64,000 bases of DNA from the NCBI GenBank assembly GCA_977017645.1, contig OZ360230.1, positions 73,842,001 to 73,906,000 of the forward strand, read 5' to 3'. The notes below the pieces were generated by a model. The model saw only the letters and a program-made list of their open reading frames with translations. It did not search any database and was not told the origin of the DNA. This document shows, piece by piece, positions 21,201 through 54,400 of this stretch; the first letter of the stretch is position 1, and every line of letters starts with the position of its first letter. Made by a program: the position numbers and the translations under genes. The stretch comes from Torpedo marmorata. Taxonomy: Eukaryota.

Positions 21201-24200
21201 ATACTAACATACTGGTAATTAAAATGAGTGGAATAATTCAACCATTTCCCTGCACTCTTCCTCTGGTGACCCAGTGAAAAGAACGTTGTCACCATTTGTA
21301 CACCAACCCTGTTGTAAAAGTGAGGAGCAGGATGTGAAATGTGTCCAGCACTCCGCTTCCACACACCAGCAGTGAGGTAAAGAGATCCAATTAATTGTTA
21401 ATTCTCCAGTTTCAAATAATCTGCTCCCCCTCTGTCCCTTTCTCTCTCCTTCTGATCTTCCCAGATCTTTTCTCACGCACCCTTCTTTCCAACGGACAGT
21501 CCTCCCCCCAGCCCCTGTAACCCAGTTCCTTTCCCCTCCCACTTCATCTGCCCATCACCCACACACTCCTCCCACTGGGTCGCCAATTCCCTCTTGCCAC
21601 TGATCCCATCTGCCCACCATCCCTCCCTTATTTAGTTCCACTCATCGCTTTTATTCATTATCAGGTTCCATAATTTGCTGCCCTTTGTTGCCCCCACTTA
21701 ACACCTCCCAGCCTCTATAACTATCTCCACTCTTACCTCCCCTACTTGACTGTATCTGCCAATCCACCCCTCCTCGCCTGGATTCACATTGCTTGCCAGC
21801 TCTTGCCTAACCCCCTTGCGGTCACCTCTATATACTGGCTATTAGCCTTTTACTTTCTCAGTCCAGAAGAAAGGTCTCAATGCAAAACGTCAGTTTGTCC
21901 ATTTCCCTCTGCAGATGCTGCCTCACTCACTGTTCATCCAGCAGCTTGTTTTTTGTTCTAGATTCTAGCATCTGCAGTCTCTTGTGTGTTCATGAATTAT
22001 CTCAAGATGCCTCCATTGGCTGATTAGACTTCTAGTGATTAATGGCATAATTTTTTTTAAATAATTTCGAACGAGTCATTTGGATTATGCAAAATATTCA
22101 TATATCAAATGTTTGTAAATCATGGAATCTATATAATGAGTATCAAAGAATTTGGCTCAAAAAAAGTGAAAATTAAAAGTGAAGAGTCTTGTTCTTGCTA
22201 TCAGCAAATTGTTATTGAAGACTATTAAAATACAGTAAATCCCCATTATCTAGAATTCAAGCAACCGGCAAAAACATTGCAGGAAATAACTACCGGTAGG
22301 TTTAAAAAAAAACGAAAGTTTAAATTTGGTGCACCCTAGCGGTCAGTTCGCCAATCCACGCAGCACACAATCTCAAGCAACCGGCAAATTCACTTATCCG
22401 GCATCTGCCAATCCCTATCGGTGCCTGATACCAGGGGTTTTACTGTACCATATTTCATATTTGTATGTACTTTTAAATCTTTTAATCTATTTTCCTTTCC
22501 CTCCTAATTTTTCTTTGTGCACTGATTTGACATTAAATTCGTCCACACAAATTTACCACTCTTCTTAGTGCTATTTTTACTTAGTCATGAAATCTCGTTA
22601 GTTTGGGAGATATATTGTTGGTCTGGTCTCTTGGCTGGTCTGCTGTCATCTCTGCACTGCTATTAGCTTGTCTATCCAGTAACCTTGTTGCAAAAGTACT
22701 TGAGCAGAAGGGTGCCAGAAAAAGCTTGTTTTCTTCAAAATGTCCTATATCCAACAAGTTCTACCTCTCTGAACATTTTGCATAATATCTTTGGTTTGAG
22801 AAGAAACAGAGAAAATGTTATGGTCAATTTGATTTTATACTCTGCTGACATGACCTATATAAAAAAGTATTTTTAAAAATTATTTCAGTGTTCTCGGGAT
22901 GATATTGCTGATAAACTGGGCAAGGATCTGGCAAAAACAAGAGCGGTACATATAGCCAATCCCAAAACAGCTGAATTTCAGGTAAGAACCAAGAATACAT
23001 TTTCATTGAGGTAATGATAGATGTACATGCTCTTGTTGACCATATTTGGGGAAGATTTATTTTGTCTGTAAATAAGCTTAGTTAAATTATAAAATATAGA
23101 TTTAAAATACAGCTGATCTGCAACTTCCCCATCTGAATTTCTGACAAATTTGATATGATTATTATGGATTATTAACAATATTACCAGTGCAGTTTGCATA
23201 TTTTCTTTCAGACATATCTGGAATATGATTTATTATTCAGTCAATGCATTGAACGTGCTCATTTATGAATTCAGTAGATTTGTACTTTAACTGATATAAA
23301 TCTGATTTCATGGATCTTTGATGTGTATCTTGAGTTTCAAATTTGCATTGTATTGGCAGTGAAATCATGAATTAATCATGAAGAAAATTATTTACATTGC
23401 GACAAAGAAATATATTCATCTTCTCCTTCCTCCTCCCTTGTTTTCTCACTGCCATTTCTTCTTTTTCTCTAGTCCTTCTCAATCATTTTTTTGCAACACT
23501 CTTGTCTTTCTTTTCCCTCTCCACCCCACTTTTATTTCTCGTATGTTTTGCATTTGACAGCTGCACAAGAAAGTAAATGGGAAGACTGCAACAAAAATAA
23601 CGATTGCTGATTTAATTTCCTTTATACACTATTTTTAGTGCACTATTATTGGATTCACATCTGATTTGCATTTCTGGATTCAATAAAAGCAATAACCTAT
23701 TGAAAATAAAATCTTTGGAAAGCCAAATCACAGAAATCTAAGGCAAAGATACAAACAATTCCATTTCCATTACACTCACGGTTTGTTGTTGGTACAGACA
23801 TCTGTAGAGTCGGAGTTGTTTAACTAACATGATCCAATATATAATCCATGTTCAGTGTTTTGGTGTTCAAAATATGAAACACATTTGATGGGTTAGGAAA
23901 ACCTGTTTTCTCAGCAATAATCAGGGATTTGGAGATCATTTTCTTATAATTTGAGGTGTAGCATGTAAAATACCGAAACTCTTCTGAGAAATGCAGAATT
24001 CCTTCTTCCCTATCCTGTTCTCCCTGTCAAAAAACAACCTGAATATTGGGAATTTGAGTTTCTAAGTTGGGTGGAGGCATCAAGAGAATTGGAGAAAAGA
24101 TGAGAATGGAAGTTTAGATATGCCTGTCACCTTACTGAATGCTGGATGGCCTACTCTTGACCTAGTTGTTCCTAAAGGATTCACCCATTTCAATTCCCCG

Positions 24201-24458
24201 TCCCATTTCCTTACTGAGATCTCCCAGTGGCCACCCATTTCAATTCCCCATCCCATTCCCTTGCTGACATGTCTGTCCATGGTCTCATGCACTGCCAGAC
24301 TGAGACCACCCGCAAATTGGAAGAGCAACACCTCGTCTTCCGTCTGGGCCTCCTCCAACCGGATGCATTAACCTAAACTTTTCTGGTTTTTGTTAACCCC
24401 ACCCCCCCTTTTCCTGCTGTCGCTTTCCCCCAGTTCCTTTTCTTTCTCTCTCTCTTTT

Positions 24459-24489
<31 letters not shown>

Positions 24490-27400
24490 TTCCCTCTGTC
24501 TCCTTTCACAGAGCTAAAATCAATTCTCACCTTCCCTCTTATCATATTCAATTAACACCTTTTGGCTGTTGGTCTGGACTCTTCCCACTGCCATTCTTCA
24601 GTCTTTAATGAGATGTCTTGTTTTTTGCTCATACCTTGAAGAATGGCTCAGGCCCGAAACGTCGGTAATATATCTTTACGTCCTATGGATGCTGCAAAAC
24701 CAGTTGAGTTTCTCCAGCATTTCTGTGTGTATTTATTAAAGTATTCAGCATTATATTTAAATTTTGGAGGGTCAATTGTACTTCTGAATTCAAATTATTG
24801 CGTAATGTTTTGTGGGAGAGAGCATTGGAAGCGACCCTCTCTATCATTGGCCGATGAGAAACTTTCTCCTTTCTCAGTTGTTGAGTCTCTGCTTGGTCAG
24901 AGAGATGATGATAAGTGAGACTGCAGAAAGCTCTGTGCCGAACCATTTTTTATTTTTTTTGCCTCGTCCCACTGTCCTGCACCCAGTCCATAGCCCTCCA
25001 TACCTCTCCCATCCATGTACCTGTCCAAATTCTTCTTAAATGTTAAAATTGAGCCCACATTCACCATTTCAGCTGGCAGCTCGTTCCACACTCCCACCAC
25101 TCTCTGTGTGAAGAAGTTCCCCCCAAAACTTTTCCCCTTTCACCCTTAACCCATGTCCTCTGGTTTGTATCTCACCTACCCTCAGTGGAAAAAGCCTATC
25201 TACATTTACTCTGTCTATCCCCCTCATAATTTTAAATACCTCTATCAAATCTCCCCTCATTCTTCTACGCTCCAGGGAATAAAGTGCTAACCTGTTTAAT
25301 CTTTCCCTGTAACTCAGTTCCTGAAGTCTGGGCAACATCGTAGTAAATCGTCTCTGAACTCTTTCTATCTTATTGATATCTTTCCTGTAGTTAGGTGACC
25401 AAAACTGCACACAATACTCCAAATATGGCCTCACCAATGTCTTGTACAACTTTACCACAATAACATCACAACTCCTGTACTCAATACTTTGATTTATGAA
25501 GGCCAATATGCCAAAAGCTCTCTTTACAACCCTATCTACCTGTGATGCCACATTCAGGGAATTATGTATCTGTATTCCCAGATCCCTCTGTTCTTCCGCA
25601 CTCCTCAGTGCCCTTCCATTTACTGTGTATGTCCTTTCTTGGTTTGTCCTTCCAAAATGCAACATCTCACACTTGTCTGCATTAAATTCCATCTGCCATT
25701 TTTCATCCCATTTTTCCAGCTGGTCCAGATCCCTCTGCAAGCTTTGAAAACCTTCTTCGCTGTCCACAACGCCTCCAATCTTAGTGTCATCTGCAAACTT
25801 GCTCATCCAATTTACCACATTATCATCCAGATCATTGATATAGATGACAAACAACAATGGTCCCAGCACAGATCGCTGAGGCACACCACTAGTCGCAGGC
25901 CTCCAATCTGAGAGGCAATTATCCACTATGACTCTGGCTTCTCCCGTCCAGCCATTGTCAAATCCAGTTCACTACTTCACCATGAATACCTAGCGTCTGA
26001 ACCTTCCTGACTAACTTCCCATGCGGGACCTTGTCAAAGGCCTTACTAAAGTCCATGTAGATAACATCCACAGCTTTTCCTTCGTCAACTCTCCTGGTAA
26101 CCTCCTCAAAAAACTCTATAAGCTTGGTTAAACATGACCTACCACGCACAAAGCCATGTTGACTATATCTAATTAGTCCATGGCTATCCAAATAATTGTA
26201 TATCCGATCTCTTAGAACACCTTCCAATAATTTACCTACTACTGACGTCAGGCTCACCGGCCATTAATTTCCAGGGTTACTTTTGGAGCCTTTTTTAAAC
26301 AACAGAACAACATGAGCTACCCTCCAATCCTCCAGCACCACATCCGTGGCTAAGGACATTTTAAATATTTCTGCCAGAGCCCCTGCAATTTCTATACTAG
26401 CCTCCCTCAAGGTCCGAGGGAATATTTTGTCAGGCCCTGGGGATTTATTGAACCTCATTTGCTTTAAAACAGCAAGCACTTCCTCCTCTTTAATCTGCAT
26501 AGGTTCCATGACCTCTCTGCTTGTTTTCCTTATTTCCCACGACTCTGCCTGTTTCCTGAGTGAATACTAATTAAAAAAAAAAACATTTAAGATATCCCTA
26601 TCTCTTTTGGCTACATAAAAAGCTGACCTCTCTGACCTTGAAGGGGACCAATTTTGCCCCTTAATAACCTTTTGCTCTTAATATACCTGTAGAAATCCTT
26701 TGGATTTTCCTTCACATTGTCTGCCAAAGCAACCTCGTCTTTTAGCCTTCCTGATTTCTTGAGGTTTTTCTTGCATTTTTCATACTTCTCAAGTACCTCA
26801 TTTGCTCCATGTTGCCTATACCTGCTGTACACGTCTCTCTTCTTCCGAACCAGATCCCCAATATCCCTCGAAAACCAAGGTTCCCTATGCCTGCTAACCT
26901 TGCCTTTATTCCTGACAGGAACATACAAACACTGTACTCTCAAAATTTCACCTTTGAAGGTTCTCCACTTACCTCGCACATCCTTGCCTGAAAACAACTT
27001 GTTCCAATCCACGCATTCTAGATCCTTTCTCATTTCCTCAAAATTGGCCTTTCTCCAATTTAGAACCTCAACCCGAGGCCCAGACCTATTCTCCATAATA
27101 ACTTGAAACTAATGGCATTATGATCACTGGACCCAAAATGCTCCCCTACACATACTTCTGTCACCTGTCCTGTCTTGTTCCCTAATAGCAGATCCAGTAT
27201 TGCACTCTCTCTAGTCGGTACGTCTATATATTGATTTAGAAAACTTTCCTGAACACATTTACCAAACCCTAAGCCATCCAGCCCTTTTAAAGTATGGGAG
27301 TCCCAATCAATATGTGGAAAATTAAAATCTCCTACTATCACAACCTTGTGTTTCCTGCAGCTGTATGCTATCTCTCTTCAGATTTGCTCCTCCAATTCTC

Positions 27401-30400
27401 GTTGACCATTGGGCGGTCTATGAGTGTGGTCATACCTTTCCCGTTCCTCAGCTCCACCCATATAGCCTCTTGTCTGTCCTACCTGAACACAGCTGTGATA
27501 TTTTCCCTGACGAGCAATGTCACTCCTCCCACTTTCAGCAACCCCCGTTCTATCGTGTCTAAAGCAATGGAAGCCCGGAGCATTGAGCTGCCAGTCCTGC
27601 CCCTCATGCAACCAATGGCCACAATGTTTGCAGATAATACGACAGTAGTCTGCCTCATCAACAACAATGGTGAGTTGCACTACATAGAAGAGGTGGAAAA
27701 TCCCATGAAATGGTACGAGAATAACATCCTGAGTCTCAATGTGGACAAGACAAAGGAGATGATTGTGGACTTCAGGAGGACCAGGGACCGACCACCCTCC
27801 ACTACACATTAATAACTCGGTAGTGGAGAGAGTAGAGAGCACCAAGTTCCTCAGAGTCCACTTAAGAAGTGACCTATCCTGGACACACAACATTTTCTAA
27901 CTTGTCAGGAAGGTGCAACAGTGACTGTACTTCCTGAGAAGACTGAGGCGGGTAAGGCTACCGGCCACCATTTTGTCAACTTTCTACAGGAGCTCTATCG
28001 AGAACATCCTGCCCGCCTGCATCACAGTGTGGTAGGGTTGCTGTAGAGCATTGGATTGGAGATCAATCCACAGGACCATAAGAGCGGCAGAGAGGATCAC
28101 TGGGGTCCCCATTCCCCCTCCCCCCCACCTGTACCCTCATTGAGGTGATCCACCGGGATGGTTGTTTGAAGAGGGCTCGCAAATTATTGAAGACGCCTTA
28201 CCACCCCGCACACAGCTACTCGCGTTGGAAAAGAAATACAGGAATGTCGGATCCAGAACCACCAGGCTGAGAAACAGCTTCTTCCCATGAAACTGCTGAA
28301 TGAACTGTTCATGCAAGCCCTCCTCTCCGAGACTCTGCTATTTATTTTTTAAAAAACGTATTTATTTTTATATGTAAATACATACTGCATATGAATCATT
28401 TGTCTATATGTGTGTTATGTCTATATGTGTGTTTGCATGTTTTTGCACAGAGGACCGGAGAACGCTGTTTAGTCGGGTTATACTTGTACAATTGGATTAA
28501 TATAAACTTGAACTTTTAACATTGAGATGCTGTTTCTTCTGTCATGATGTTGTAATTCAGAAGGCCACAAGGTGGCGACATTATTCTAGTTTTCCTAATT
28601 CTTTTTCTGTGGTGAGATTTCGGTTGATAAAGTTTTGCTGATCTTGTGATTCTTAAGCTGAACTAGTAGTTCTGCAATGTACAAGATAACCTGGTTTTTT
28701 TTAAGCAGCATTTTTCTTTAAAAATGAGTGTTAAGCAAATTTATTTTCTTGGAAACGATTGCTTGTGTACATTATGAATCTTGTGTACATTGAGCCATGT
28801 TGATAATGTGAAAACAGCATACTTATTGTATCTGCCTTTTAATTTTATTCAGGTTGCTCGCACGACTCTTCTCTCTGGTCTGCTGAAGACAATTGCAGCC
28901 AATAGAAAAATGCCTCTACCTTTGAAATTGTTTGAAATTTCAGATGTTGTTCTGCAAGATTCTTCTTCAGGTACTTGCACTTAATTTAAAGAAAACATGT
29001 TTATTTTATCATCGGTTGCTTTCTAACTCTTTAATCTATGCACATTAGCGCTCAAAGCAGTGATGATTTTTAAGTGATATTTTACACATGTATGAAGACT
29101 GCGAGTTTTGAACAATAATTTAGAATATTAAAATATGGTTGATTAGAATCATATTAAAAGGCTAACAACAGAACTGGACAATGAAGATCAGAAGATTTCA
29201 GGGTCAGTGTTAGGTACTTTTGTGCTAGTTCATGGACCTCAGCCATAGAAGTTGTAAAAGCTCAATGAAATGCCTAGGGTCATCACTCCTGGCTGGTATC
29301 TTTCTAGCCTCTATCTTTCTGGGGCCAAGGGGGGATAGTTTTGTCAGCTTCACTTCTGTGCCAACTATTTTAGCACTTCTTGAGAATCAATCTCAGCAAG
29401 TTATTGGTCTGTGTTTCAGCAGCTTGCTGGAAAATCTTGCTGACCCGTTTTGGGAGGCTTTTAAACATGGTTCAGTGAACTCTGATTTGTATTTTTTTAT
29501 TGTACTTTGCCACATTCACGATGTTCACTTGTAATGATGAACCAGATCTTATTGACCAAAGTGCCTGTCATAAGTACTTGCTGTCTGGCCTCCTAATCCA
29601 GAAGTGGTCTTGGTGGTCCAATGCTTCTCAGACTCCATCAGTGTGACCTGAGCAATGACAGAGCTTTAAACTGTACACTGGAGCAATGTTGCGTCTGAAG
29701 TTCCACTCACGGTGTGACCAGCTGGAAGAGCTCAGTGTCATCTTTGAAAGCTGTCAGGTGTTTAATGAAATAATTATATAATAGTAGGAGGAGGCCATCT
29801 GTTGCTAATGGCCAGTCCACTACTCAGTAAAATCATGGACGATCTGTCAGTTAACCATCATTTTCCTTTGATTGCCAAATATATTTTTGTTACCTTAATA
29901 TCCAAAAATCTATCAGTGTCTGCCTTGAATTCTGAAGATTCACTACCCCCTAGGTGATCAAAATTTATTTTCACCTCAGTCCTGAATGGCCAGCATGTCG
30001 TGCACTCTGCCCCCATTCAATGCACCCAGCCAAGATTAAAATCAAACCTGGACCTACCTGTTCAAGCCCCATTCGAAAAGTAGAAAAGTATAGCAGAGGA
30101 ACAGACCCTTCGTCCCCTCCATGTTTGCCTCAACCATGATGGCAAATTAAACTGATCCCAACTGAGTGCATGTGGCCATAGCCCTCTATTGCCTGCCTAC
30201 ACGTGTTCTTTAAATGATGCTGTCATATGTGCTTCTACTATTTCCCCTTGCAGTATATTCCAGTCACCTCCCTCTCTGTGTAAAAAGAAACGCCTTGCAA
30301 ATCTTCTTTTAAATTTCTGCCCTCTCACCGTAAACCTATGCACTCTAGCCTTTGACATTTCCACTCTGGGAGAACAAAAACTCTTGACTCTCTATCAGGT

Positions 30401-33400
30401 CTACCCTCTGATGCCCCAGAGAAAACAATCCAAGCTTGTTCAACCTCGCCTTGTCGTTAATGTTCCTTAATCCAGGCAACATCCTGGTGAAGAGAAACAT
30501 AAAAGCTGCAGATACGAGAATGTTGAGCAGACAAAGAACTGCTAGAGGAACTCAGCATGTCAGACAGCATCCATGGGTAGAAACGGTCGGTCAACATTTC
30601 GGATCTGAAGCCTTTGTCAAGATTAAGATAGAATTGGTGAAAGTACATATATAAAGGGAGAAAGAAGCTGGTGAGGTGCCAGAGGTAATAATGTATAGGC
30701 AGAAGGTGTGGGAGGTGGAGAGACAGGTAGGAGAAATCATTTGGAAAAGGGGTGGGGAAAGAAAGGTTAGAGAGAAAAAAATCACAGGAGTAGGTAAAGA
30801 AGGAAATAGTTGAATCAGATGGCTGTGGAGGTTACCTAAAATTAGAAAAATCAATGTTCATGCCATTAGATTTCAGGCTGTTCAGGAGAAATATGATGTG
30901 TTGTTCCTGACAATGGAAGAGGCCAAGGACCGACATGTCACTGTAGGAATGGTTGGGGGAGTTAAAATTATTGGCTACAGAAAGCTTGGGTTTAGACCCA
31001 CGGAGTGTAGGAGTTCGGTGAAGCGGTCACCCAATCTGTGTTTGGTCTCAGCAATGCCGAGGAGGCTACAACGAGTACATCTAATGCAGTAGAGACCGCT
31101 CTTCCCTCCCCACCCAACCTTCCACCCCATGAGGCACTTCCCACTGTAATTGCAGAAAATGCAAAACTTGTCCCGACATCTCCCCCCTTACCTCGATCCA
31201 GGGCCACATCAGACCTTCCAGGCGAGGCAGAGCTTTACATGCACATCATCCGACCTAATCCACTATGTTCGTTGTTACCCAGTGCGGCCTCCTCTACATC
31301 TAGCGCAGTTGGTCATGTCAACCTGCACATGATTTGACTCAGCTGATGTTCGCACACATGTGCTTCCAAAAATAGTAATGGGGACAACAGATGATCTTTC
31401 CCTCCCCTGGGCAGTTGTACTGTTTTGTTGCTTTGAAATAAAGCAGCTAATTCTACAAAGACACAAAATTGAGACTGGAACCTTTGTGGTCTACATGGCA
31501 TAACTACTTCATGAATAATTTCTCTTGAGCTGTCTGGAAAATCCATATAAAATGCTTCTGTAATTTTGTTAACCAAAACACTCATAATAAATGGAAGAAT
31601 ATAAGCCTGCTTTACCTTGTATCAAATTTCATGCAAGGTAATTCACTGCTTTATACCATAAAACTGGTCTGTCTCTTTTAAATAGCTAAAGTGCTTATAC
31701 ATATAAATGAATCATTTTTGTGCATTGCCTTATATGCGGTAAAAAAGTGATTGCAAACAGATTATGAAAAATGTTGTGGTTCAGTAATAACATGAAATCA
31801 GTTCTGTTAGCAGACCTTAGTTAAACCCCGCTTGGAATATTTTGTTCAGTTCTGGTCATCTCACTACAGGAAGGTTATGGATGCTATAGAGAACGTGCAG
31901 AGGAGATTTACAAGGATGCTGCCTGGATTGGAGAGCATACCTTATGAGGATAGATGGAGTGAACTTGGTCTTTTCTCCTTGGTGGATGACCTGATAGAGG
32001 TATATAAGATGATGAGAGGCATTGATCGTGTGGATGGTCTGAGGCTTTTTCCCAGAGCGAAAATAGCTAACATCAGGGGGCATAGATTTAAGGTGCTTGG
32101 GAGTAAGTACAGGGGGGATGTAAAAGGTGTTTTTCCACACAGAGGGTAGTAGTGCATGGAAGGTGCTGCTAGCAATGGTAATGGAGCCAGGTACAATAGG
32201 ATCTTATAAGAGTATATAAGATAGGTACATGGAACTGAGAAAAATGGAGGGTTATGTAGTAAGGAAATTCTAGGCAGATGTTAGAGTAGGTTATTAGGTT
32301 GGCACAACACTGTGGGCCAAAGGGCCTGTAGTGTGCTGTAGATTTCTATGTTCTAAAACAAAACCTTTTTTATAATTTAATTAAACCTCGTATTTTTGAT
32401 GGACACAATTGTCCACCTTAGGATCTTTTTATATCGGCACACAAATTGTCCTGATACATGGATAGGATGGGTTAGAGGGACATAGACCAAATGCAGGTAG
32501 GTGAGAATAGTGTGGGTAAGACATTTTGGTTGGTGTGCGCAAGTTGGGCTGAAGCCCCTGTTCCCATGCTGTGTGACTCCATGACTCTGTCTTTGATATT
32601 GTGTCTGGTGATTTAATTTTTTTTCCAGATTTTTACTATTTATGATAAAAGGTGTCCCAATTAATTTGAACAACTACTTTTGGAACACGTGGTAAAGATG
32701 TCATAAAAAATACATTTGCCTAGTGCTGAGTAACTGAAAAACAATTCGTTCTTATGCTTGTATGTGAACTGAAGAGAAGTGCTAATTGAACTACATACCA
32801 GCAACCACATCATTGACAGGGATCGCCCAGTGACCAACCATATCAATTCTGTGCCCCACTACTGCACCGACACATCTGTCCATGGCCTCATGCACTGCCA
32901 AACCAGGGCCACCCCTAAATTGGAAGAGCAACACCTAATATTCCATATGGGCACTCTCCAACCGGATGGCATTAACTCGGTTTCAGCGAGACCACTCCTT
33001 GTTCTCCCTTTCTTCCCTATCCCTCTGTCTCCTTTCCTCCAGCTCTCCACCCCTTCCCTCTCCATGCATAGAGCTATCCCCCCTCCCCCTGTTTTCTCTT
33101 GTGCCCTCCCTCCCTTATCCACCTATTACCTTTTGCCTGTGGACCTGTGCTCCTGCCCCTTCCTCCCACCATTTTACTCAGGCACCTGCCTACATCCTGC
33201 TCGTACCTTGATGAAGGGCTCATGCCCGAAACGTTGGTTATGCATCTTTATCTTTGCTATATAAAGTATGCTGTGTGACCTGCTGAGTTTCTCCAGCGTT
33301 GTGTTTTTACTACAATCACTGTGTCTGCAGACTTTTGTGTTTCACACCAGCAAAAGGAGTCAGTGAACTTTTGCAGGGAATAAAAACTTGTTAGGAAAAA

Positions 33401-36400
33401 TTATACCAAGTTTTCCACAAAACAATTTCAGCGTGCATGTCATGTGTAATTGACAGACATTTTTGTTCATTCTGAGTTGGCAATCTCCTGTGGCAAGAAA
33501 TTATGTTGAGTCCCTGTTGTGTATATATACTCAACGCAGTGGCTGGTGCTGAACAAGCAAAAAGGCTAAAATGTCTTAATCAGAGGACTGGAGCAAAAGG
33601 TAAATTCAAAGCATGCCACATTACAGTCTCATATCCTGCATGTGTCAGAGTTCAAAAATGGAACAGGATTCCTGTGTGGTGGAAATTCAGTTAGTCGTGC
33701 AGCCAGTGATCTGCTTAAAATCTTAAGTAAACATGATTTACTCATTATAAACTGCAGTGAAATTGTTTCATGAAAGTGAAACAATATTTTTGTTTAATTA
33801 CTTGAAACTACAAGAATATGAAGTAAGTATTTTATCTGATGTCAGATCCTTTATATTGATACAAAAACAAGGATTTATTTTGTACTCAATAATTCCACGC
33901 TCTTATTAGCTGAAATGACTATTGTTCTTGAAAGCAGAATCAGATTATATTCTACATGGCAGGGCAAAGTTTCTGAATCTGAGGGAAGTTGTTTTGTACA
34001 GAGGAAGAATTTGGGGATTAAAAAATACTCGTGGATTCTATTGCACCAAATGATTGATGCAGATCTATAGAAGAGATGCAGAAGTATGAAATGAAGAAAA
34101 GAAAATACTGTACAACTTGTCAAGTTTGTATTTTAGAGCCAATCATTTTCTATTTTTACCCTGTCCCAAACTTATAAATGTTGAATATTTAATTGATTTA
34201 GTTCTCTGTTGAAGTTTAACTAACTTGATGTTTTCTGCATTGCAGAAATCTATTGGGTCCTGTAAATTTGTCTGATGGCTTTGTTAGCTTAAGTATGTAC
34301 TTTGTGCCTATTGTCTGTTAAATTTAATATTGCTATGTTTTTGGACGAGCATTGATGGAATGAAACACAGTTGAGCCTAATCCTGTTTAGGACACTGGAT
34401 AGTGATCAAGTGGAAGAATCCTGGATAGTTAGGATAGTTTCAAGGATACAGTCTGTGTTGTAATCAAAAATATAATTTTAACTCTATTGATTGGAATCCA
34501 ATTCTTAAAATAAAATCAGAGCATAGATCTTCAAGCAGTCAAAAGTTAGGTATGGAGAATATTTGTGGTTGAAATTAATTTAGGTGTGGAGAATATTTGT
34601 GGTTGAAAATGTGGAAAGCCATAAAAAGCCAAGGTTAGTGGGTGAGGGAGGTCAAGAAATATCTGTCTCCAGTGGCTGAAGACAATAATCCACATAATAG
34701 GGAATGAAAGTGGAAAGCAACATTGGAATCGCAAGTACCATACATTAGCTACCTCAAACCATTACATCTAACAATTCAGCTGCTAATTTTTGGCCTGGTT
34801 TGTAGTCACAATATTTGGGTATGGCTGTGATCAGTAGTGATGATCCCTCAACATCAGATTGGAAATAGTTTGGTTGACAAGGAAATAGACATCAACAGTG
34901 GTTCGCTGAGTTTTAAATCTGGTTTGGAACTATGTTATCCTTCTACACTATTTCCACGTTTCTGAAAGTTGCATTGTCTTCTGGTGAAAGAAGATAGTAG
35001 AAATATTTTAATCTTTTTTTTTTTGCAATACAGATGTTGGTGCGAAAAATGAAAGACACCTCTGTGCTTTGTACTACAACAAGAATCCAGGCTTTGAGGT
35101 GATTCATGGCTTGCTGGATCGTGTAATGCAACTTCTTGACCTGAAACCGGGAAACAATAATGGATACTACATACAGGCTGCAGATGGTGAGCAATATTTT
35201 ACTTGGTCACATGGGTGTATGTGGGTAACACAAACTCGTGGGCTGGAAAGGCCCATTACCGTGCTGTATCTCTAAATTAAAATTAAATTATACTTTGTAT
35301 TCCACTTAAATTCAGTGACACAATGTAACACAGAAATGCATGTAAAGTCAATGTAAAGGAGCAGTTAGTCCACAGTATGATGTGTGAAGAATGAAGAACT
35401 GATATTTTCATTTTGTTCCATGGCGACCTCAAGAAGTTGGGTTCAAAATCCAGAGCCCCTTGTGACTACTGACAACCATTCAGAACATGTACATGTAGCT
35501 ACCAACTCTGAGATTTTTCATGAAATCTTCGGTAATTAAAGTTCCACTCCAGCACCATTTTCTCGAGAGCAGATCTATCCTAAGTAAATGGGGAAACAAA
35601 AATCATTCCTTAATTAGATGTGACAAATTCTTTGAGCATCATTCTAAAACAGGTAATGTTTCATTCAGAATAGAAAGCAACAAAGGCAGCAAGTAAATTA
35701 GGAACATGAAAATATATATATATACCTATTTTTGATCTGATTTAATTTTCACTGATATGAAGGTTGATTGACAGTCACTAATAAAATCATACCATTGAAA
35801 ATCCTCTTGTAGCACAGTGGACTTTTTTATGGTATGTTCAGTGTGTGTCCAGTCACAGGGTACAGCAGGTTTGTGTGTTCCATGTGTTTCAGTCTCAGCA
35901 AACACTATTACACCAGAATAAAACACGAAAGTCTGCAGACGCTGTGATTGTAGTAAAAACACACCGAAATGCTGGAGGAACTCAGCCGGTCTTTTCAGCA
36001 TCTATAGGAGATAGAGATATATTGCTGACGTTTCGGGCCTGAGCCCTTCTTCAAGGAATAAGCCAGAAGCAGGAAATCTCAAAGTCTCAGAATTCAGACA
36101 GTGCAGGCTGGGGGAGGAATCCAGTCCAACAAAAGGACTTAATTGGATATGATAAGGGACGAGGTAAGAATTTATCATGTGTGTGCGAAAGGAGATGGAA
36201 TGGAGATTCAGAGATAGGGAAAGGCATCAAGGGAAGAAGGGGTGGGTGTTTAACGAAAGCCAGAGAAATCGATATTAATGCCATCCGGTTGGAGGGTGCC
36301 CAGTCGGAAGATGAGGTGTTGTTCCTTCAATTTGTGGGTGGTCTCTGTCTGGCAGTGCATGAGACCATGGGCAGACATGTCAGCAAGCGAATGGGATGGC

Positions 36401-39400
36401 AAATTGAAATGGGTGGGCACTGGGAGATCCACGCTATTGCAGTGGACAGAGCCGAGGTGCTCAACAAAGTGATTTCCCAGTCTGTATCCAGTCTCTCCGA
36501 TGTAGAGGAGACCACAACGGGAGCACCGGATGCAGTAGATGACCCCTGCAGATTCACAAGTGAAGTGTTGCTTCACTTAGAAGGACTGTTTGGGGCCCCG
36601 AATGGTGCTGAGGGAGGAGGTGTGGGTGCAAGTGGAGCATCTCCTGACGATTGGTGGGGAGGGAGGAGTGGACAAGGGATTCACGGAGGGAGTGGTCCCT
36701 GCAGAAGGCAGAGAGGGGAGGAGGGGGCACACGCAACAAGGACAGGATTCCTCTTGTCCTCACCTACCACCCCACCAGCCTCCGCATCCAACACATCCTC
36801 CACCTACTACGTGATCCCACTACCCGACACATATTCCCCTGTCGCCTTTCCCTATCTCTGTCTCTCCATTCCATCTCCTTTCGTACAAATATGATAAATT
36901 CTTACCTCGTCCCTTATATCCAATTAACACCTTTTGTTGGTCTGGATTCCTCCCCCAGCCAGCATTGTCTGAATTCTGAGATTTCCTGCTTCTGGCTTAT
37001 TCCTTGAAGAAGGGCTGAGGCCTGAAACGTCAGCAATATATCTTTGTTTCCTATAGATGCTGAAAAGACCGGCTGAGTTCCTCCAGTATTTCAGTGTGTT
37101 TTTACTATTACAGCAGAGCTTGAGGAACAGTGTGGAATTTCTGTATCCTGAATTTCACGTATGACTGCGCTTGAAGGAAGTTGCTTTTTGATTTACTGAT
37201 GGTGCATCCTGCAAATTTCTTGGCTACAACATCCAGTTCTGTCTCGTATGGAATGCAACATCACTGACAATGTATTTCCTCGGTGCTATAATCGCAATGT
37301 CAGCCAGGATCAGGTGCTCAAGTCCTGAAGTTGCAGTTATTTAAATGGGAAGCAACAGTGCTCCTACATACCGAGCTTGTGTCCTTTCCACTGTGTTATC
37401 TTGAGATTTGGATCAGTTCATGTTTCACTATTCCTATCGGGTACCTACTCGCTGATAGAGAGCCATTTGATTTGTTCATTTTGTTTTGTGTTGTTCAATG
37501 ATTTTCATGTCACAATGCGAACGTTAATTTATTTTCTTAGTTTTACATATTTGCACATTCCATAAACTAATTCAGAGGATAATTAACCTAGCCACAATTC
37601 TAGCCAGCTCTTCCAGTATAGTTACAATACTATAATCTATATACCTGATAATTACCCAGGCTTGTCCTATTCACAAAAAACAGGGCAAGTCTAGTCTGCA
37701 TAATTAACACTCAATCATCTACTCACAATCATCAGCATAGAACTGGATTGGGTCTTTGGCAGTGCTATTAAATGACACTTGCCATTAGCCTCCTCAGAGT
37801 TGCCCATTTTGAGTTTTTGGACCATTTGGCTGCAGACCTCATCATAGCCTTCGTCCAGAAATGAATTCTAAATGTGAGGTAAGAATTGCCCATCAGAGTG
37901 GAGGAAAGGATCCTTGGTAAAACTGGTGAGTAGGCACCAAGGGGAATAACATTGCTCTGATTAGAATATGTTTGCACAAAAATGCTGGAGAAACTTAGCA
38001 AGTCACGCAGCGTTCATTCTTTATGTAGTAAAGACAAAGGTATATAACCAATGTTTCGGGCTGGAGCCCAACAAGGTATGAGCAAAATGCAGGCAGGTGG
38101 CTGAATAAAATGGTGGGGAGTAGGGCAGGGCAGAGGCAAGAGGTCATAGGTGGATATGGGTGTGAGGAACAAGGGAAAAAAGCTGAGAAGTGATTGGAGG
38201 AGGGGATAGATCTGAATGGAGAGGGAAGTGGGTGGAGAGCTGGAGAAAAGGAGACAGAGGGATGGGCAAGAAAGGGAGACAGGTGAGTGGAAACTGGAGA
38301 AGTCGATGTTAAGGCCATCCGGTTGGACAGTGCCCAGACGGAATATTAGGTGTTGATCCAATTTACGGATGGCCTTGGTTTGGCAGTGCATGAGGCCATG
38401 GAACGACATGTCAGTGCGGGAGTGAGGCGTGGAATTGAAATGGTTGGCTACTGAGAGATTCCCCCCATTGCTGTGGACAGAGCAAAGGAGCTGAGTGAAA
38501 TGATCTCCCAGTCTGTGTGCAGTCTCTCTGATGTAGAGAAGGCCACAACAGGAGCACCGGATGCTGTAGGTGACCCCCGCAGATTCACAAGTGGAGTGTT
38601 GCTTCATTTGGAAGGACTGTTCAGAGCCCCGATTTGTGATGAGGGAGGAGGTTTGGGCATCACAAAGCCTTTTCATCATCTACAAGGCACAGGCAGAATT
38701 GTGGTAAAGGGCTCTCTGCTCCTTGGAAGAGTGTAGCTGCAATGGCATTCCAAAGGTTTTCCACTCTCCACACAGAGAAGCCTGTTTGATTGATATCTCG
38801 TCCACTCCCCCAAACATTAATTCCCTCCGCCACTGGTACACAGTGACTCCTGCGTGTGCTGTCTACAAACGACACTGTAGTTAATTTATCAGGCTACTCT
38901 ACCACCAAGAAGGACAAGGGTGGCAAGTGCATAGGATTACCATGACCTGCAGATCTCCTCCAATGCACATGTACTGTTTCTTCATTGCCTCAACTCTGGG
39001 ACATCCTATTCAATAGCACTGTGAGGAGTACCCTATAAGAGGGGCTGCAGCAGTTGTAGAAAGTGGCTCATCACCACCTTTTCATGGGCAGTTAGGAATG
39101 GACTTGTCAGTTCTATTAAAAAAATCAATTAAAAAGGCAAACAATAGTATAGTTATAATCCAGAAGTTATTACAGATGCAACTTACCTAATATTAAGTAA
39201 TTTGCCATCAACAAGTTTGGTAGTGCAATTGTGCATTCATTTGTGCAATGCTTGCATAAGGCTTCTTTAATCCTAATGAAATTACCAAAAATTAAACCCC
39301 ATCCTCTGGGAGTGTATACTGTACTTCACTTGTTAAACTAAATGTGGTGTGAAATGTAATGAAACTTGCTGCATAACTGGAATGTTCCCCACTGCCAACA

Positions 39401-42400: not shown

Positions 42401-45400
42401 GTCAGTTTGTTTACATTCGTTATCTGTTTACAGTTCTTTTATTTGTTTACATGTTTACGCTGTGAACAGTTTATTTTTTGCACTACCAATTAGTGGTAAT
42501 TCTGCCGTGCCCGCAAGAAAAAGGAATCTCAGGGTTGTATGTGATGTCATGTATGTACTCTGACAATAAATCTGAAATCTGAACACCTGAGCTATATGGG
42601 ATTAGCTGTTCTAAATTTCATTATCTATGCCTTCTTTTACGCATACTAAAATCCATCAAATTGAGAATTTATTAAAGAGGAACCAAACCAATCTAGGTGA
42701 ACGTCAGTCAAAATGGCATTCAAGTTTGTTTTGCAGTTACCGGTACTTAGAATAGTTTCATTTGCAGCAGATTTTTCTCTTGACATTTTCAGAACCATTT
42801 TAATAGGGTCAACAATTGGTCAGAAATAAAATGAGTTCTGGCAATGAATGCAGACTGACAAGAAGTTTAAACAGAAACCAAAGAAGTGAAAATTGAAAGA
42901 CATTAGACTTGTTGCTAATGGGCAATTGGGGTTTTGAGAAAGAAAAACATACTGACCCATTACAGATCACTGATTAGTGAGAATTATGGATGATTTTAGG
43001 CACTACAAGATATAAAGAAAAATGCAAGAGGTTTATCAGAATGTAACCACAAATTAACAGTTTCAGTTGAAGAGAAATTTTGGAAAAGTTGAGACTGTTC
43101 TTCCTGCAACAGAAGTGATCGAACAGTTTCCAAAGTTTTTGGGAGAGGAAGCAGAGGGAAAAGCTGCCGACAGTGAGTGAGCCAGTTACTCTGGGCTCTA
43201 GATTTAAAGTCTTTGGCAAACTAGAGAGAAGTGAGACGAGGAGAATTGTTTTCATTCTTTGTGTTGGAGTCTGGGACGTTCTGGGTGCAAGGGAGCTGAT
43301 GTTGGGGTCTGGGACGTTCTGGGTGAAAGGGAGCTGATGTTGGGGTCTGGGACGTTCTGGGTGAAAGGTGCTGATGTTGGGGTCTGGGACGTTCTGGGTG
43401 AAAGGGAGCTGATGTTGGGGTCTGGGACGTTCTGGGTGAAAGGGTGCTGATGTTGGAGTCTGGGACGTTCTGGGTGAAAGGGAGCTGATGTTGGGGTCTG
43501 GGACGTTCTGGGTGAAAGGGTGCTGATGTTGGGGTCTGGGACACTGGGTGAAAGGGTGCTGATGTTGGGGTCTGGGACGTTCTGGGTGAAAGGGTGCTGA
43601 TGTTGGGGTCTGGGACACTGGGTGAAAGGGTGCTGATGTTGGGGTCTGGGACGTTCTGGGTGAAAGGGTGCTGATGTTGGGGTCTGGGACGTTCTGGGTG
43701 AAAGGGTGCTGATGTTGGGGTCTCGGACGTTCTGGGTGAAAGGGTGCTGATGGATGATTCCATAATTTTAAAGGCATGTTGAACAAGTTGTTGACGAGGA
43801 TCGTTAACAAGGTTATGGATAACAAGCAAGATTATAGAACAACAGTGAATCAGCACAGGCACAGAAAGATTGATCTCCTCCTGGGCTGTAGGTTTCTGTA
43901 ATTGTATGATTAGTTTTTCCAAATAGTACCTGAGTAAATGTTATTTGATTTCCATTGCTTAGGAGAAATGTTACTGCTTAATAAATTTTCCAAACTAGTT
44001 GAAACATTCTCACATTTGCCACAAAAAATTATGCTTATAGATTTTGATTCAAATAATTTTAGGTTGAATAAAATCATTTCATTGAAGGCTGTCTTTAAGT
44101 TGCCACATTATTTAATTAACCATCTGTCTTACTATTTTGTTGAACAAGAATTGCAACCTTTATGGTTGTAAAACACATTTACTGACCTTCTGTAGCCCTC
44201 TTAGAAACACCTGTTCATGGACATAGATTATGGGAAATAAGGATGAAATTGCTGAGTGCCATGTGCCTTTCTGAGGATAGTGTGTGAAAAATGATCCTTG
44301 CTCAGGCTATTGAAAATGGAGCAGAGATACTGTAGGTGGTCATTCAGAGTAATGTGTATCATCAGGAGATTTAGTGATCCTGTTAAAGCTTTGATACGGA
44401 ACAGCAGCATTAGTAAATAGGCGTAGCAAAGCAGACTTTCTTGAGTCAGAAGTCTGGTTCAGTTACTATCTCCTGGGACGAGTGGTGAGGCTGTCCATTA
44501 TATGTAGAGCAGAGAGGTGTAATGGTATTACAAATATACTAAGCATTCATGCTATAAAATCACTGAGCTTTTCCTTTGGTATATAGAATTTGCATTTATA
44601 ATCTAGGTAATTAGTGCCATGGGGTGCTATTAAATGATTACGTGATTAACTGGATTATTTTAGGTTATTTTGGTCAGAGGTTATTGAAAATAAAGTTAAT
44701 TTTTCATATTTTATGAATTGCTTGTGAACTGGTGCTATTTACCTAATCATTTATTTTGGGTAAAGCCAAGTTCCAGAACATAAAGCTACCTCAAGACTAG
44801 ATTATGCAAATCATCCTACTCTTGTGATTGGTTTTCTTTGCAGAATTTATATTTGTGATTTGAGAAAGGTTTACTTTCTGTATTTTGTCAAAGTTAACTT
44901 GGTTTCATTGGGTATATCTTCAATAGTGCAGCATGATGTTGGATTCTACCAGGGAGATTTAAGCCTCCTTTGCAGACTTGGTTGAAGAGTTCACTCTTGT
45001 TTTAAGGAGAACAGCAAAAGTTGAATGGTTTGACGGAGAGAGTGAGTGTCACATGGTGTCTGGCTATAACTGTTCATAATACAAATAGCAAAATTCTGGG
45101 GATACATAGGTACAGAGGTAAAAATTTTATTTGAAATTTATTTTAAAATATGCGTGAGCTTTTATTGTTCATGTATGGGATTTGGATGTTATTTTTAAGA
45201 CCATTGTTTAATGTCTGTCTCTCATTGAGTTTCTTTCTTGAACCAGTGCAGTCACAGTGTTGTTGCAGAGAGTTTCGAATTTTTTTATCCAGTGATTAAG
45301 GGGGAATTACGATATATTCCCAATTCGGGGTCTTGTGTGACACAGAGGGGTGGTTGATGGTTTTCCCTTTACCATTTTGCCTTGTTCTTCCATTGGTACA

Positions 45401-48400: not shown

Positions 48401-51400
48401 ATTGAGAGATGCAAGGTCCAGAAATAAAATACATTTAAGCCATTCTACATTTCACTCATGTGTACAACAGTACAGTAAGACCCCTGTTGTCTGGAATTCA
48501 AGCAACCATCAGCCTCAAGCAAATTAATTTATTTGCAGATGATGTGCTGTTGTATTTGACAGACACTGCCGAGTCCTTGGCCAGGTTGCAGACCACACTG
48601 GAAGATTACGGCATGATTTTGAGTTACAAAATCAATTTAGAAAAAAGTGAGATCATGCCGTTGACAAAATTTGATTACAGGGAATATCAACAAAGGAGTA
48701 GTTTTAAATGGCAAGCAAACAGTATTAAATATTTAGGAATAATGATTGATAATAATTTGCAGAATTTGTATGGACTTAACTACCTCCCTATGCTTGGAAA
48801 GATTGAAGACGATTTACTTAGGTGGAGGAACCTGCCCATTACTCTAGTGGGCAGGGTGAACTGCATTAAAATGAAGGTGATGCCGAGACTGCAATACCTC
48901 TTTCAGTCCTTGCCAATCCCATTGCAGCGGGTCTTTTTTAAAACACTTAACGGATAAGTAAGGCAATTTATCTGGAGTGGTATGGTCTCCAGAGTTTCCA
49001 TGGAGAAGCTGCCATGGGATTACAATTTGGGGGGTTTGCGATTACCAGATTTTAAGAAATATTATTTAGCAGCCCAGTCGAGGTTTCTTTCATCCTTTTT
49101 CGAGGGGGACGATCCCCCCCCTCGTGGGTCCAAATTGGACTACACACCATAGGAGAGAAAATAGCGAAGGATTTTATTTACAAATGGAACACCAAATTAA
49201 TATCTGGAAGAACAGACAACCCCATTCTAAAACACATAATTAAGATTTGGCAGGAAATCAATGAATGTACTGGAGGGAAGGTGGAAATATAACCAAAGGC
49301 ACCTTTGATCCAAAATGAAACTATACCCATGGCTTTGGGTAACAAAATCTTAAACATTTGGCACCAGAAGGGACTCTGGTATATTGAAGATTGTTATGAG
49401 AAAGGACAACTTATGTCTTTTGAGCAATTGAAGAGTAAATATGATTTGTCTAATGGAACCTTCTACTGTTTTCTTCAACTAAGGTCCTTCTTGAGGGATA
49501 GATGGGGTCCTACAATGACCCCACCTAGGTGTAATGAAATGGAAAAGTTGCTTCGATTGGGAAATGCACCTAAATTCATATCTAGAATGTATTTCGTACT
49601 CCAAAGCGAAAGCCCTAAGCCGGGCCTACAAAGATCGAGAGAGAGGTGGGAGTCGGACTTGGGCATAACAATTCACGAACGATGCTGGTCAGACTGGTGT
49701 TTAGACAGCATGACAGCAGTCATTAATGCTAGATATAGGCTGGTTCAATATAATTTCCTACACCAATTGTATCTCACACCACAAAAACTACACAAGTCAA
49801 AATCAGAAATGTGTTTCAGGTGTGGGATAGAAATTGGATCCTTTTTACACTCCACTTGGTCATGTGCAAAGGTAAGGCCCTTTTGGCATGATTTAGCTAA
49901 CGCACTAACTAGGATCACGGGAGTAGCCTTTCCACTAGTCCCGGAGTTGTATCTTTTAGGAAACCTCGTGGACATAAGCAACAGATTATCTAAATTCCAA
50001 ATTCAATTTGTAAAAGTTGCTCTGTCCGTAGCAAAAAAAATGCATCACAGTTACTTGAAGTCCGACTCCCCCCTTCTCATCACTCGATGGTCTACGGCAG
50101 CGTTTCCCAAACTGGGTTCCGCGAAGAGGCGCAGGGGTCCCGCAAAAGAAATAACTAAAACTTTTAATAATTTTTTTAATTTAAATTACTTTTTAACCTG
50201 TGTGTTGAAATCGCTGCATTTCTGCGACGGCAGCAAGCTGTTGCCCCGACGCTAACAAAACAAAAATGTCGTCTTGATGCCTGACGTCAGCAGCGCAGAC
50301 GAGGGTCCGCGGCAGGGAGTGAGGGGCAGCGAGGAGTGAGGGGCGACCCGGGTCGCGGTGGGGAGCGAGGGGCGGTGGGGGTAGCCAGGCCTGTGGCGGG
50401 GAGCGAGGGGCCGCGGCGGGGGTAGCCAGGCCTGTGGCGGGGAGCGAGGGGCCGTGGCGGGGGTAGCCAGGCCTGTGGTGGGGAGCGAGGGGTGGCGGGG
50501 GTAGCCAGGCTTGTGGCGGGGAGCGAGGGGCCGCGGCGGGGGTAGCCAGGCCTGTGGCGGGGAGCGAGGGGCCACGGCGGGGAATGAGGGGCCGTGGCAG
50601 GGGTAGCCAGGCCTGTGGCGGGGAGCAAGGGGCGGCGGCAGGGGCGGCCCGGACCGCGGTTGGGAACGGGCGGGGTGGCCCGGACCGCGGTGGGGAGCGA
50701 GGGGCGGCGGGGGTAGTCAGGCCTGTGGCGGGGAGCGAGGGGCGGCGGAGGCGACCTGGGTTTTAAACTGTAAATGACGATTGGGGTTCCGCGATTTCCA
50801 AGTGCTCCCCAAAAGTTAAAAAGTTTGGGAAGCCCTGGTCTACGGAAATGTACAGCTGTATCCCCATGGAAAAAATTACATATAGTTTTAGAAATAAATA
50901 TGATAACTTTGTCAAAGTGTGGCATCCGTACTTGGAGCACATTGGTGCTCAGTTGTAATCAAACCCTTGAGGTATGGTATACTGTAAGGTATAATTATTT
51001 TAAGAGTGTGGCATCCCAAATACTTGGACAAAAGTTGTAAGCACTGACGGTACGTTTAGTTTTCTTTTCTTTTTCTTTTTCTTTCTCTTTTGTCTCGGTT
51101 TTATTCTTTTTGGGTGGGGAAGGAAGGGTTAAGGGGTGTAATGTATTCTGTACTTGATACGTTTGAAATTTATGTATATTCATGATTGTTTATTAATGTT
51201 TTGTGAAAATTTCTGAAAATGAAAAATAAAATATTTTTTTTAAAAACCATCAGCCTTAAGCAACTGGAAAAAAAAATTGCAGAAAATAAATAGGTAAAAA
51301 TAAATATGAAAGTTTAAAATTGGCGTGCCTTGCCGTTAGTTCGCTAATCAAGCAACCGGAATATTCACTTATCCGGTATTTATCAATCCTCATAGGTGCT

Positions 51401-54400
51401 GGGTAACAGGGGTTTTACTCTATGTAAAAGATGTCTGTCACATTATTCTAATGTGAAATCTCACAAATAATGTGTTCTCTTTAAACCATTTGTTAATGAG
51501 ATAATTAGAAGTTTTAAGTAGTGTATAATAATGCACTGTATTCTTTTATGGTCAGTCTAGCGTTGTTGCAGGCTTTGTGAATGCTACTTAAACTAATACA
51601 GGATGTGGGTTTAGATGGGGATATTGTGTCTATTCTCTTGTAGAAAAGAAAGTGTTCCAGTAATTGGAAATTAACATCAACTCCCTATTAAAAGAATCAT
51701 GGAACTTGTATCAGCCATTATTTATATGTTGTCTGACTCATAAAAATGAATATAAATATATATATATATATTCAATGATAAACTGAATAAAGTGCTACTG
51801 ATGTGAGATTTTCACAGGAAATTATTGTAATAATAGAATTGCAACATTTTAGTCGGTGCATTATGGTGAGTATTTTGAATATAAAAGGAAACCAGTTTTA
51901 AAATGTGGACATTTCAAAATAGACTTACCATGAAATAGAATGTGGGCTTTTTTCTTTTATGTTTTGCATTGCCTTGAACAGAATTGAGGCAAATTCTCAG
52001 AAATCTCGGATTTCAGCAAATAAATTGATACATTCCGATCATGGCTGGTTAGGAGATGTCTGGATAAACCAAATAGTCTTTGTGTTATAAATGTGATGCA
52101 ACTCTTGGCTGTAGAAAAGCAGGAAGCAGGGGGACAGCATGTATTTATTAATGGCACAAATGAAATAATTCACATTACATAGAGATAACAGCACTATCTG
52201 TGCAGATTCAGCAGTACAAAAATTGAGAAAATAGTGAAGTTCCGTACAGGTTTTAAGCATCTGGATTCTGTCCCTGGATCTATCATTGGGATCTTTTGTT
52301 GATGTGTTCTTTGATGTGTAGAAATGGTGCTTAACTTAAAAGGATTAGGCATACCAACTGAGAGGCCTTACACCTGTGCAATTCAGACACGAAGGAAATT
52401 TCTGCCTGCCTCACTGGGAAAGGCTTTTAATAAGTACTTGAGTCCATTGAAAAGTCAAAGTGCAGTTAGAACATTCAGAAATCTTGTGAGATACACTCAG
52501 TCGAACTTTTCATTGTGGTTTTCCTTCTACAGTAATGGGGTGTTCCATTTTATTACTTCTATATGTAAAGTTGGACCAGTTTTCTGTTCAGTAATATTTA
52601 ATTTTGCAACATTCAAAATATGAAAAGGCACACAGTATGATTTGATGTTTTTCATTGAACTTTAAATGTACTGTTAAGTATGCTTGAATCCGATTGCTTT
52701 AGTAGGAAATGTAAACTATCTATTGTGAACTGTATATTAAATGTTAGAAAAATTGTTTCTTGCTGTTTACAAATGAAACACATTGTTGAGTTGGCATGTC
52801 AAATCATGCTGTCACTTGTGAATTGATTGGCATTTTTGGATTTCACCAATGACTTGGGCTGTCAGTTAGTGTGGTTGTTACTTGCCAAATGTGAAGTACT
52901 GCCAAGAAAATGTTGCTTATTGGTTATACCGTGTCGTAAGGAGTCCATCTGATGACTGACTCTGGGAGAAACTATTGAGTGAATGCTGAACGATCATGCA
53001 TCTAAACGTTGTAGCTGGATTCTATTTGAGAAACCTGGAGAAATTATTTCAGTGCAAATGAAAATCGCATGGATTCTGAAGTAGCCAGGTGATCAGTTAT
53101 GTCAGTGCACCACCCAAATGTCAATGAAAATAACTTGCTGGGTGGGTGTTTCACATGAAAGTTAGTAAAGTGAGAACCTGGGTGATTTGGGGTGAAAAAG
53201 AAAAGTTCTCAAAGTTGTGTTGAAACAAAGACCAATCTGTATGTTGGTTCTTCCTCCAGTCCCAATGCAAGTGAATTGCTAATCAGGTCTCAAGTAGTTC
53301 AGTCTGTTTTACTGTTGATGACCTTTATTGCTAGCCAAGCTATTAAATACTTCAGCTATCATTTTTCTCAGGCTGGATAGGTCTGATACAGCAGAGTTAT
53401 CAAACAATCTTTCTCATTGATTGCAAAAGAATATTAAATGTAATTAAATGTGTCTAAACATAGTTAAAAGTGGCTGCTGTGATTCTAATTAAAAAGAGAA
53501 AACCACCCCAACCCCTTTCCATTAATATGGGTAATACAGTATTACAATCTTCACCATGAATAGTGATTTTCTTTGTTACAAAGTATTACAGCTATGGCAG
53601 GGAGTGCAGGCCATTACAGCCTACAAAGCGAGGGCGAACACTATAGACGGCTGTGATGCTTCACTACCCGATGAGCTGAACACCTTCTATGCCCGCTTTG
53701 AGAAGAAGAACCAAACAGTGCCTACTAGAATCCCTGAAAAGGCTGAGGACCCTGTGATATCTGTCTCTGAGGGCGATGTCAGAACATCATTCAAGAGGGT
53801 GAACCCTCGCAAGGCATCAGGCACTGACGGCGTACCTGGCAGGGTACTGAAAATCTGCGCCAACCAACTAGCCGGAGTGTTCACGGACATTTTCAACCTA
53901 TCATTGCGGCAGTCAGAGGTTCCCACCTGCTTCAAAAGGGCATCAATCATCCCGGTACTCAAGAAGAGTAGTGTGAGCTGCCTCAACGACTACCACCCAG
54001 TAGCACTAACTTCTACTGTGAGGAAATGCTTTGAGAGCCTGGTCATGGCCAGAATTAACACGTACCTAAGCAAAGATCTGGACCCACTGCAATTCACCTA
54101 TCGTCACAATCGCTCCACAGCAGATGCAATATCGCTCGCTCTCCACTCAGCTCTGGATCACCTCGAAAACAGCAATTCATACATACGGCTGCTCTTCATC
54201 GACTACAGCTCAGCCTTCAATACCATTATTCCCTCAGTGCTGGTCAAGAAGCTACAAACTCTAGGCCTCTGTACCCCCCTCTGCAACTGGATCCTTGACT
54301 TTCTCATCGGAAGACCACAGTCAGTACGAATTGGAAACAACGTCTCCTCCTCACTGATTATCAACACAGGCGCACCCCAAGGATGCGTGCTTAGCCCACT

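Follow-up and report, generated by a model that had tools for sequence, protein, structure and literature searches.

The window analysed here (the whole 64-kb stretch of Torpedo marmorata DNA at positions 73,842,001–73,906,000 of contig OZ360230.1, read on the forward strand) carries exons of FARSB on its + strand, and the introns between them hold copies of a minimal hammerhead ribozyme motif that belongs to Penelope-like elements (PLEs). The exons lie at 22889–22981, 28853–28970 (PF17759 positions 73–109), 35034–35186 and 57469–57620, the last of these being the last coding exon (PF17759 positions 171–214); we number them 14 to 17 on what we take to be a 17-exon vertebrate layout. Given these exon positions, the sense copies of the motif fall in the last three FARSB introns, which fits their placement in introns 14, 15 and 16 by a preliminary description of the window.

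Hammerhead motifs and their carrier elements

Four copies of the motif are well preserved, and we refer to each by the window coordinate of its position 3. On the + strand, the 24636 copy (24630–24670) lies in intron 14, the 33208 copy (33202–33242) in intron 15 and the 37004 copy (36998–37038) in intron 16. The 36054 copy (36020–36060, − strand) is the antisense twin of the 37004 copy, with which it shares an insertion carrying an inverted pseudo-long terminal repeat (pLTR). These are the positions given in the preliminary description, and its cut sites at 24663 (position 17 of the 24636 copy) and 37031 are correct as well; the third sense site, position 17 of the 33208 copy, is a GUU site at 33235. 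A relaxed version of the motif matched four times in the window, compared with a mean of 0.18 and a maximum of 2 in 100 first-order Markov resamples. The Rfam hammerhead models gave no match in the window even at E ≤ 10, which was to be expected, since the motif lacks loop III.

The minimal type I topology with a palindromic ACGU that had been proposed for these motifs was borne out. All four copies contain U4 G5 A6 N7 G8 A9, G12 A13 A14, the A15.1-U16.1 pair and H17, and all have U at position 3 with G8 retained (U3·G8), again as first described. The statement that stem II pairing is kept, however, fails: positions 10.1 and 11.1 form a U·C mismatch in the 24636 copy and a G·U in the 37004 copy, although at the family level G10.1-C11.1 is present, as is an extra base after A9. 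In the 37004 and 36054 copies, C·A replaces C-G at 2.1-1.1, adjoining the cut site. Among the sense copies, stems I, II and III are all intact in the 33208 copy only.

A profile search also recovered all six degraded copies that had been suspected. Four are old copies of the pLTR on the + strand, at 1–92 (interrupted by the window start), 10158–10248, 11133–11221 and 21851–21955; an older copy lies on the − strand at 30529–30626. The sixth, at 38118 on the − strand, is part of a truncated PLE (37974–38676) that comprises the C-terminus of a GIY-YIG endonuclease and a pLTR with a deletion in the hammerhead core.

Each well-preserved motif terminates a 5'-truncated element with the GIY-YIG endonuclease C-terminus upstream. 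The 24636 copy is borne by a Neptune-like PLE at 24218–24727 (+), consisting of the endonuclease C-terminus and pLTR and sharing about 79% identity with the closest relative sampled, and the 33208 copy by a 5'-truncated PLE with pLTR and 3' tail at 32805–33352 (+). The other two copies sit in a truncated PLE insertion at 35915–37107, of the inverted-pLTR kind common among these elements, with its body on the − strand and an inverted piece on the + strand; its pLTR arms (35951–36081 and 36977–37107) are 95% identical over 131 nt. Young relatives elsewhere in the genome have long frames with reverse transcriptase (RT) and GIY-YIG matches alongside a CX2-5CxxC linker, and they possess inverted pLTRs as well as a short tail. 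The domain matches, RVT_1 with E 2e-6 in locus L144 and GIY-YIG with E 5e-4 in locus L001, are both just short of the curated cut-off. In L001 a single 404-aa frame contains both regions, and its translation shows the CX2-5CxxC linker and CCHH-type cysteines in the endonuclease. The proposed Penelope origin of the motifs thus stands, their place being the pLTR behind the RT–GIY-YIG frame; the clade name Neptune is a putative assignment from protein motifs. A near full-length young element (L144:3233-6900) has a 980-aa stop-to-stop frame, which shifts near the endonuclease, an inverted 5' pLTR and a 3' pLTR with tail.

Position 3 and core conservation across the genome

The preliminary description had called for a family-wide count of U3, and U3 dominates. 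Exact U3·G8 copies with the common stem II number 87,612 genome-wide vs 1,252 with C3-G8. Copies with U3-A8 number 1,133, compared with 920 and 742 for the lethal-mutant controls G5A and U4C (all exact genome-wide patterns, with position 7 limited to A or T for U3-A8 and G5A). Since the variants that restore a pair are only slightly commoner than lethal point changes, U3-A8 and C3 did not expand. Position 3 lies outside any CpG, and 98.6% of the exact copies have U there; with the older stem II type the counts were 105 U3 and 29 C3. We also searched 980 kb of randomly placed stretches, anchoring on the downstream tail. This gave 113 matches, 110 of them with flank and 67 spanning the core, and in the latter position 3 was U in 55, C in 10, A in one and a gap in one. 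Fully intact motifs in these stretches had U3 in 20 of 20 cases, and their number projects to about 127,000 genome-wide. A Watson-Crick pair at 3-8 (C3-G8 or U3-A8) is therefore not a feature of this family, in which U3·G8 is dominant. The U3·G8 core is an inherited family norm, not decay.

A set of 165 copies, pattern-picked loci included, was sorted by hand-made flank rules into six subfamilies (A–F), leaving 32 unassigned. Among unbiased loci, subfamilies A–D had U3 in 49 of 50 copies, E had C3 in 5 of 5 and F was mixed; the youngest subfamily had U3 in all 15 unbiased copies. The four successive U3 subfamilies diverge by about 17%, 11.5%, 11% and 3% from their own majority lines, and the youngest also closes stem I with U·G, having U, not C, at 2.1. 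A tree of 59 endonuclease-end sequences was ladder-like, with the few C3 rows, mostly picked by the C3 pattern, on long or weak branches. We considered a register shift, in which the C before the U would be a true C3 followed by an inserted U, and rejected it because the stem I register is equal in C3 and U3 subfamilies; the U at 2.1 in the youngest subfamily contradicts it as well.

These data also dispose of the reading in which U3 is C-to-T decay after insertion or the motif is conserved as protein-coding sequence, to which we give next to no credence. Where the stop codon is mutated, as in a few copies, the core can indeed be read as open peptide sequence. In most copies, however, the RT–GIY-YIG frame stops about 190 nt upstream of the motif core, so the motif is non-coding, and the distance from stop to core varies in all three phases; conservation through protein coding was rejected on these grounds. 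Decay is refuted by the counts, with position 3 outside a CpG and U nearly universal in exact copies and in the unbiased youngest ones.

Apart from position 3, the catalytic positions are conserved beyond their surroundings, and the outcome that would have spoken against a ribozyme, no core conservation beyond the flanks, was not what we found. They are invariant in 10 of 10 cases across the six majority lines vs 10 of 27 for the flanks (Fisher p 0.0006), and within the U3 subfamilies A–D in 10 of 10 vs 15 of 33. G5, A6, G8, A9, G12, A13, A14, A15.1, U16.1 and ACGU are fixed across the four U3 subfamilies. All majority lines have ACGU as the palindromic, loop-less stem III, and position 17 is C or U only. 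The covariation check that had been suggested was positive for stems I and II: at 2.2-1.2, 98 of the 165 copies have CG and 29 TA, and at 10.4-11.4, 119 have CG and 26 TA. Inside the U3 group there is a compensatory swap in stem I (AT in 85 and TA in 9 of 109). Pair 3-8 is the exception, being without covariation (TG 113, CG 35, TA 6). Individual copies nonetheless decay, since the general base G12, which lies in a CpG, mutates like other CpG sites (to A in 11 of 67 copies, comparable to 11 at 16.2 and 12 at 1.1). This pattern suggests to us that selection acts on source elements rather than on inserted copies.

About 45 nt 3' of the cut site, all pLTR copies have a hairpin (window 33270–33300 for the 33208 copy) in which 20 of 22 columns do not vary among the six subfamilies. 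Insertions end either just past this hairpin or about 35 nt beyond it, in the tail, and we regard the hairpin as a candidate for the signal at which reverse transcription starts. By eye we considered whether loop II might form a pseudoknot with this hairpin, and discarded the idea, as such pairing is not conserved in the older subfamily.

Possible catalysis and the fate of the FARSB copies

Taking the sequence evidence together, we think it probable that the motifs are pLTR hammerheads of truncated Neptune-like PLEs in which U3·G8 is the family norm, that this core makes a weakened, slow ribozyme, and that the FARSB copies are inert relics. The U3·G8 core is predicted to weaken a ribozyme that is already slow and of the dimer type. 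In active source elements the fold would still be under selection, most likely as a slow, dimer-dependent, protein-assisted ribozyme for which the 3-8 wobble may be good enough; after insertion, each copy would be free to mutate. Published work, here and below taken from parts of the cited sources, offers some precedent: the minimal hammerheads of PLEs are weak even as dimers (PMC4209133), and the hammerhead of an anole PLE cleaved only in the presence of the element's protein (PMC11167929).

If cleavage sets the 5' end of the template, copies should begin at position 1.1. The 5' junctions were not enriched at this cut site, with 47 matches (about 250 once pattern capture is corrected for), compared with 98 (about 230) 5 nt downstream, at a control position. 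When 30 of the 47 were viewed by eye, about 11 looked like true flank junctions and the rest like inversions or small indels. Well-preserved copies, moreover, retain sequence 3' of the cut site, which implies that the 3' motif was uncut in the template RNA, and a slow core would suit such an uncut motif.

The motif might instead be catalytically dead and kept as a structural or sequence signal, for protein binding, RNA dimerisation or as a promoter element. We consider this unlikely, although it would account for the lack of a junction excess and for the U·G that closes stem I in the youngest subfamily. It also agrees with an exhaustive mutational analysis of a type III hammerhead, in which single mutants of the core region, among them the C3U type, all had low activity (PMC9901934), and with the anole element, for which mutating the hammerhead left insertion in vitro unimpaired (PMC11167929). 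A signal of this kind does not readily explain why nine catalytic bases and ACGU stayed fixed in four U3 subfamilies while the flanks changed, why position 17 is restricted to C and U in the majority lines, or why a stem I swap was compensated within the U3 group. A more specific version of the weakened ribozyme is somewhat doubtful but deserves mention: the dominant PLE lineage of this genome may have built four subfamilies on a U3·G8 core that is catalytic yet tuned down and protein-gated. If so, the 3' pLTR, on which reverse transcription depends, would be spared because cleavage is slow and protein-gated, and the roughly 127,000 intact copies would be harmless to host pre-mRNAs, which may have permitted amplification on such a scale.

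Two arrangements elsewhere in the genome bear on dimer cleavage. In locus L146 (G000:C1:5814639-5814711), two young U3 motifs lie 46 nt apart as a direct tandem, in effect a naturally occurring dimer construct. Loci L027-L030 (G000:C25:171643333-171643599 and around) hold a tandem array, repeating about every 48 nt, whose units contain a C3 minimal hammerhead with intact stems. Dimer cleavage is more plausible for this retrozyme-like array than for the copies in FARSB.

The preliminary description had proposed that the sense copies in introns 14 to 16 pair through ACGU and cut the FARSB pre-mRNA co-transcriptionally, which could affect its splicing or output. Three sense copies do lie within one transcript. 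In the dimer geometry stem I forms between the partners, so both strands must fit, and the stem I strands of the 24636 and 33208 copies are cross-compatible (-3.0 and -2.5 kcal/mol). Nevertheless, we judge such cleavage to be highly improbable. Key pairs are broken in two of the three sense copies, and stem II of the 24636 copy does not form in a fold of its local context. When 35900–37150 was folded, all but one of the 41 bases in the 37004 motif paired with the antisense twin (-727.5 kcal/mol), so this copy is predicted to be locked in a duplex in the pre-mRNA; active dimers involving it reach only -3 to -7 kcal/mol. The remaining pair is separated by 8.6 kb, in different introns with an exon between, and its active dimer is not the lowest-energy one. 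Sense copies able to cut pre-mRNAs would be expected to be purged from introns, yet in 570 kb of nine myosin genes the intronic copies showed no strand bias (41 sense vs 42 antisense). FARSB has seven sense and three antisense copies; with about four in sense, whatever their quality, expected in 57 kb, the seven are unremarkable (p 0.12). It is thus likely that the FARSB copies are inert relics and leave the pre-mRNA uncut, and nothing special is indicated for FARSB itself.

Several observations weigh against the reading that we prefer, that of a weakened ribozyme in the source elements and inert relics in FARSB. The junction result gives no support for a role of cleavage even in source elements. 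The downstream hairpin is conserved equally to the core, so core conservation alone is no proof of catalysis, and the subfamilies on which it was scored come from hand-made flank rules with 32 of 165 copies unassigned. As to the FARSB copies, the 33208 copy is intact and its stem II forms in local context with probability 0.77; an active dimer of the 24636 and 33208 copies can be drawn at -17.5 kcal/mol, compared with -23.6 for the best fold; and the strand test restricted to intact copies is small (4 sense vs 6 antisense).

Other features of the FARSB introns include a degenerate 5S rRNA copy at 1293–1411 (+), which exceeds the Rfam gathering score with 48.7 bits and is probably a pseudogene or the head of a SINE. 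A long, near-perfect, MITE-like inverted repeat lies at 5281–5591 (137-nt arms, 88%, 37 nt spacing), and the last intron has minisatellites at 43205–43828 and 50299–50791, with periods of about 38 and 41 nt. Remnants of several kinds of LINE-type reverse transcriptase are found at 53535–54866 (+), 25069–25968 (−) and 48439–50255 (−). The FARSB exon at 35034–35186 is 153 nt; its human counterpart is presumably 156 nt, that is, one codon longer. Outside the window, the − strand of locus L141 has a 418-aa frame resembling LTR-retrotransposon pol.

Comparison with known systems

Judged from sequence, the motifs are PLE minimal hammerheads by all features tested except the 3-8 Watson-Crick pair. 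Like those described by Cervera and De la Peña, 2014 (PMC4209133), they are type I without loop III, with palindromic 15.2-16.2, an extra base after A9, G10.1-C11.1, a short stem I and a location in the pLTR, and they occur mostly as lone truncated copies. The Acropora Neptune row of that paper has a nearly identical stem II together with ACGU. The published consensus has C3, and the text as seen discusses only U3-A8, whereas the Torpedo marmorata family is dominated by U3·G8. The novelty first attached to U3·G8 was nonetheless overstated, because a precedent is printed in Fig. S3 of the same paper: the PLE-associated Saccoglossus (1) row has U3 with G8, as here, and the missing pair is thus an exception inside the published set. 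What differs is scale, with 87,612 exact copies here vs about 9,000 minimal hammerheads in Xenopus tropicalis, the largest vertebrate count in the text as seen, and host, since this family comes from a cartilaginous fish and no row from one was seen in Fig. S3. We found no account of genome-wide U3·G8 fixation in open-access text, a search that did not cover a 2017 survey of dimeric variants.

The carrier resembles the endonuclease-positive (EN+) PLEs of the Neptune clade (Craig et al., 2021, PMC8557442), a likeness judged from motifs: both have an RT followed by a C-terminal GIY-YIG with two cysteines inside, a CX2-5CxxC linker, 5' truncation, an inverted pLTR and a 30–40 bp tail. In the green anole, the Poseidon element PAc (Frangieh et al., 2024, PMC11167929) likewise carries a hammerhead that is weak alone, and no read ends were seen at its cut site, much as there is no junction excess here. 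PAc differs in having C3-G8 and a frame that starts at hammerhead stem II, whereas the present motif is non-coding and has U3·G8.

Other natural changes at position 3 are known. U3-A8 has been described (Perreault et al., 2011, PMC3088659), in contrast to the U3·G8 found here, and a halophile variant (PMC7151607) has U3 and G8 as here, along with an insertion of 2 nt, but does not belong to a retrotransposon. Hammerheads of the RECK type in amniotes (PMC6155905) are also type I, lie in introns and have a proposed role in mRNA biogenesis. They are ultraconserved single loci, whereas those in FARSB are damaged copies from a very large repeat family, and this damage disfavours a status as domesticated intronic hammerheads.

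The comparison bears on an open question, whether PLEs need their hammerhead to cut. From older C3 through U3 to the youngest U3·G8 with a U·G closing pair, the subfamilies form a natural series in which the other catalytic bases have not moved, and which offers a natural test of whether the wobble core is catalytic, protein-rescued or dead. The motif itself is of a known kind, with a family-level core variant that has a printed precedent.

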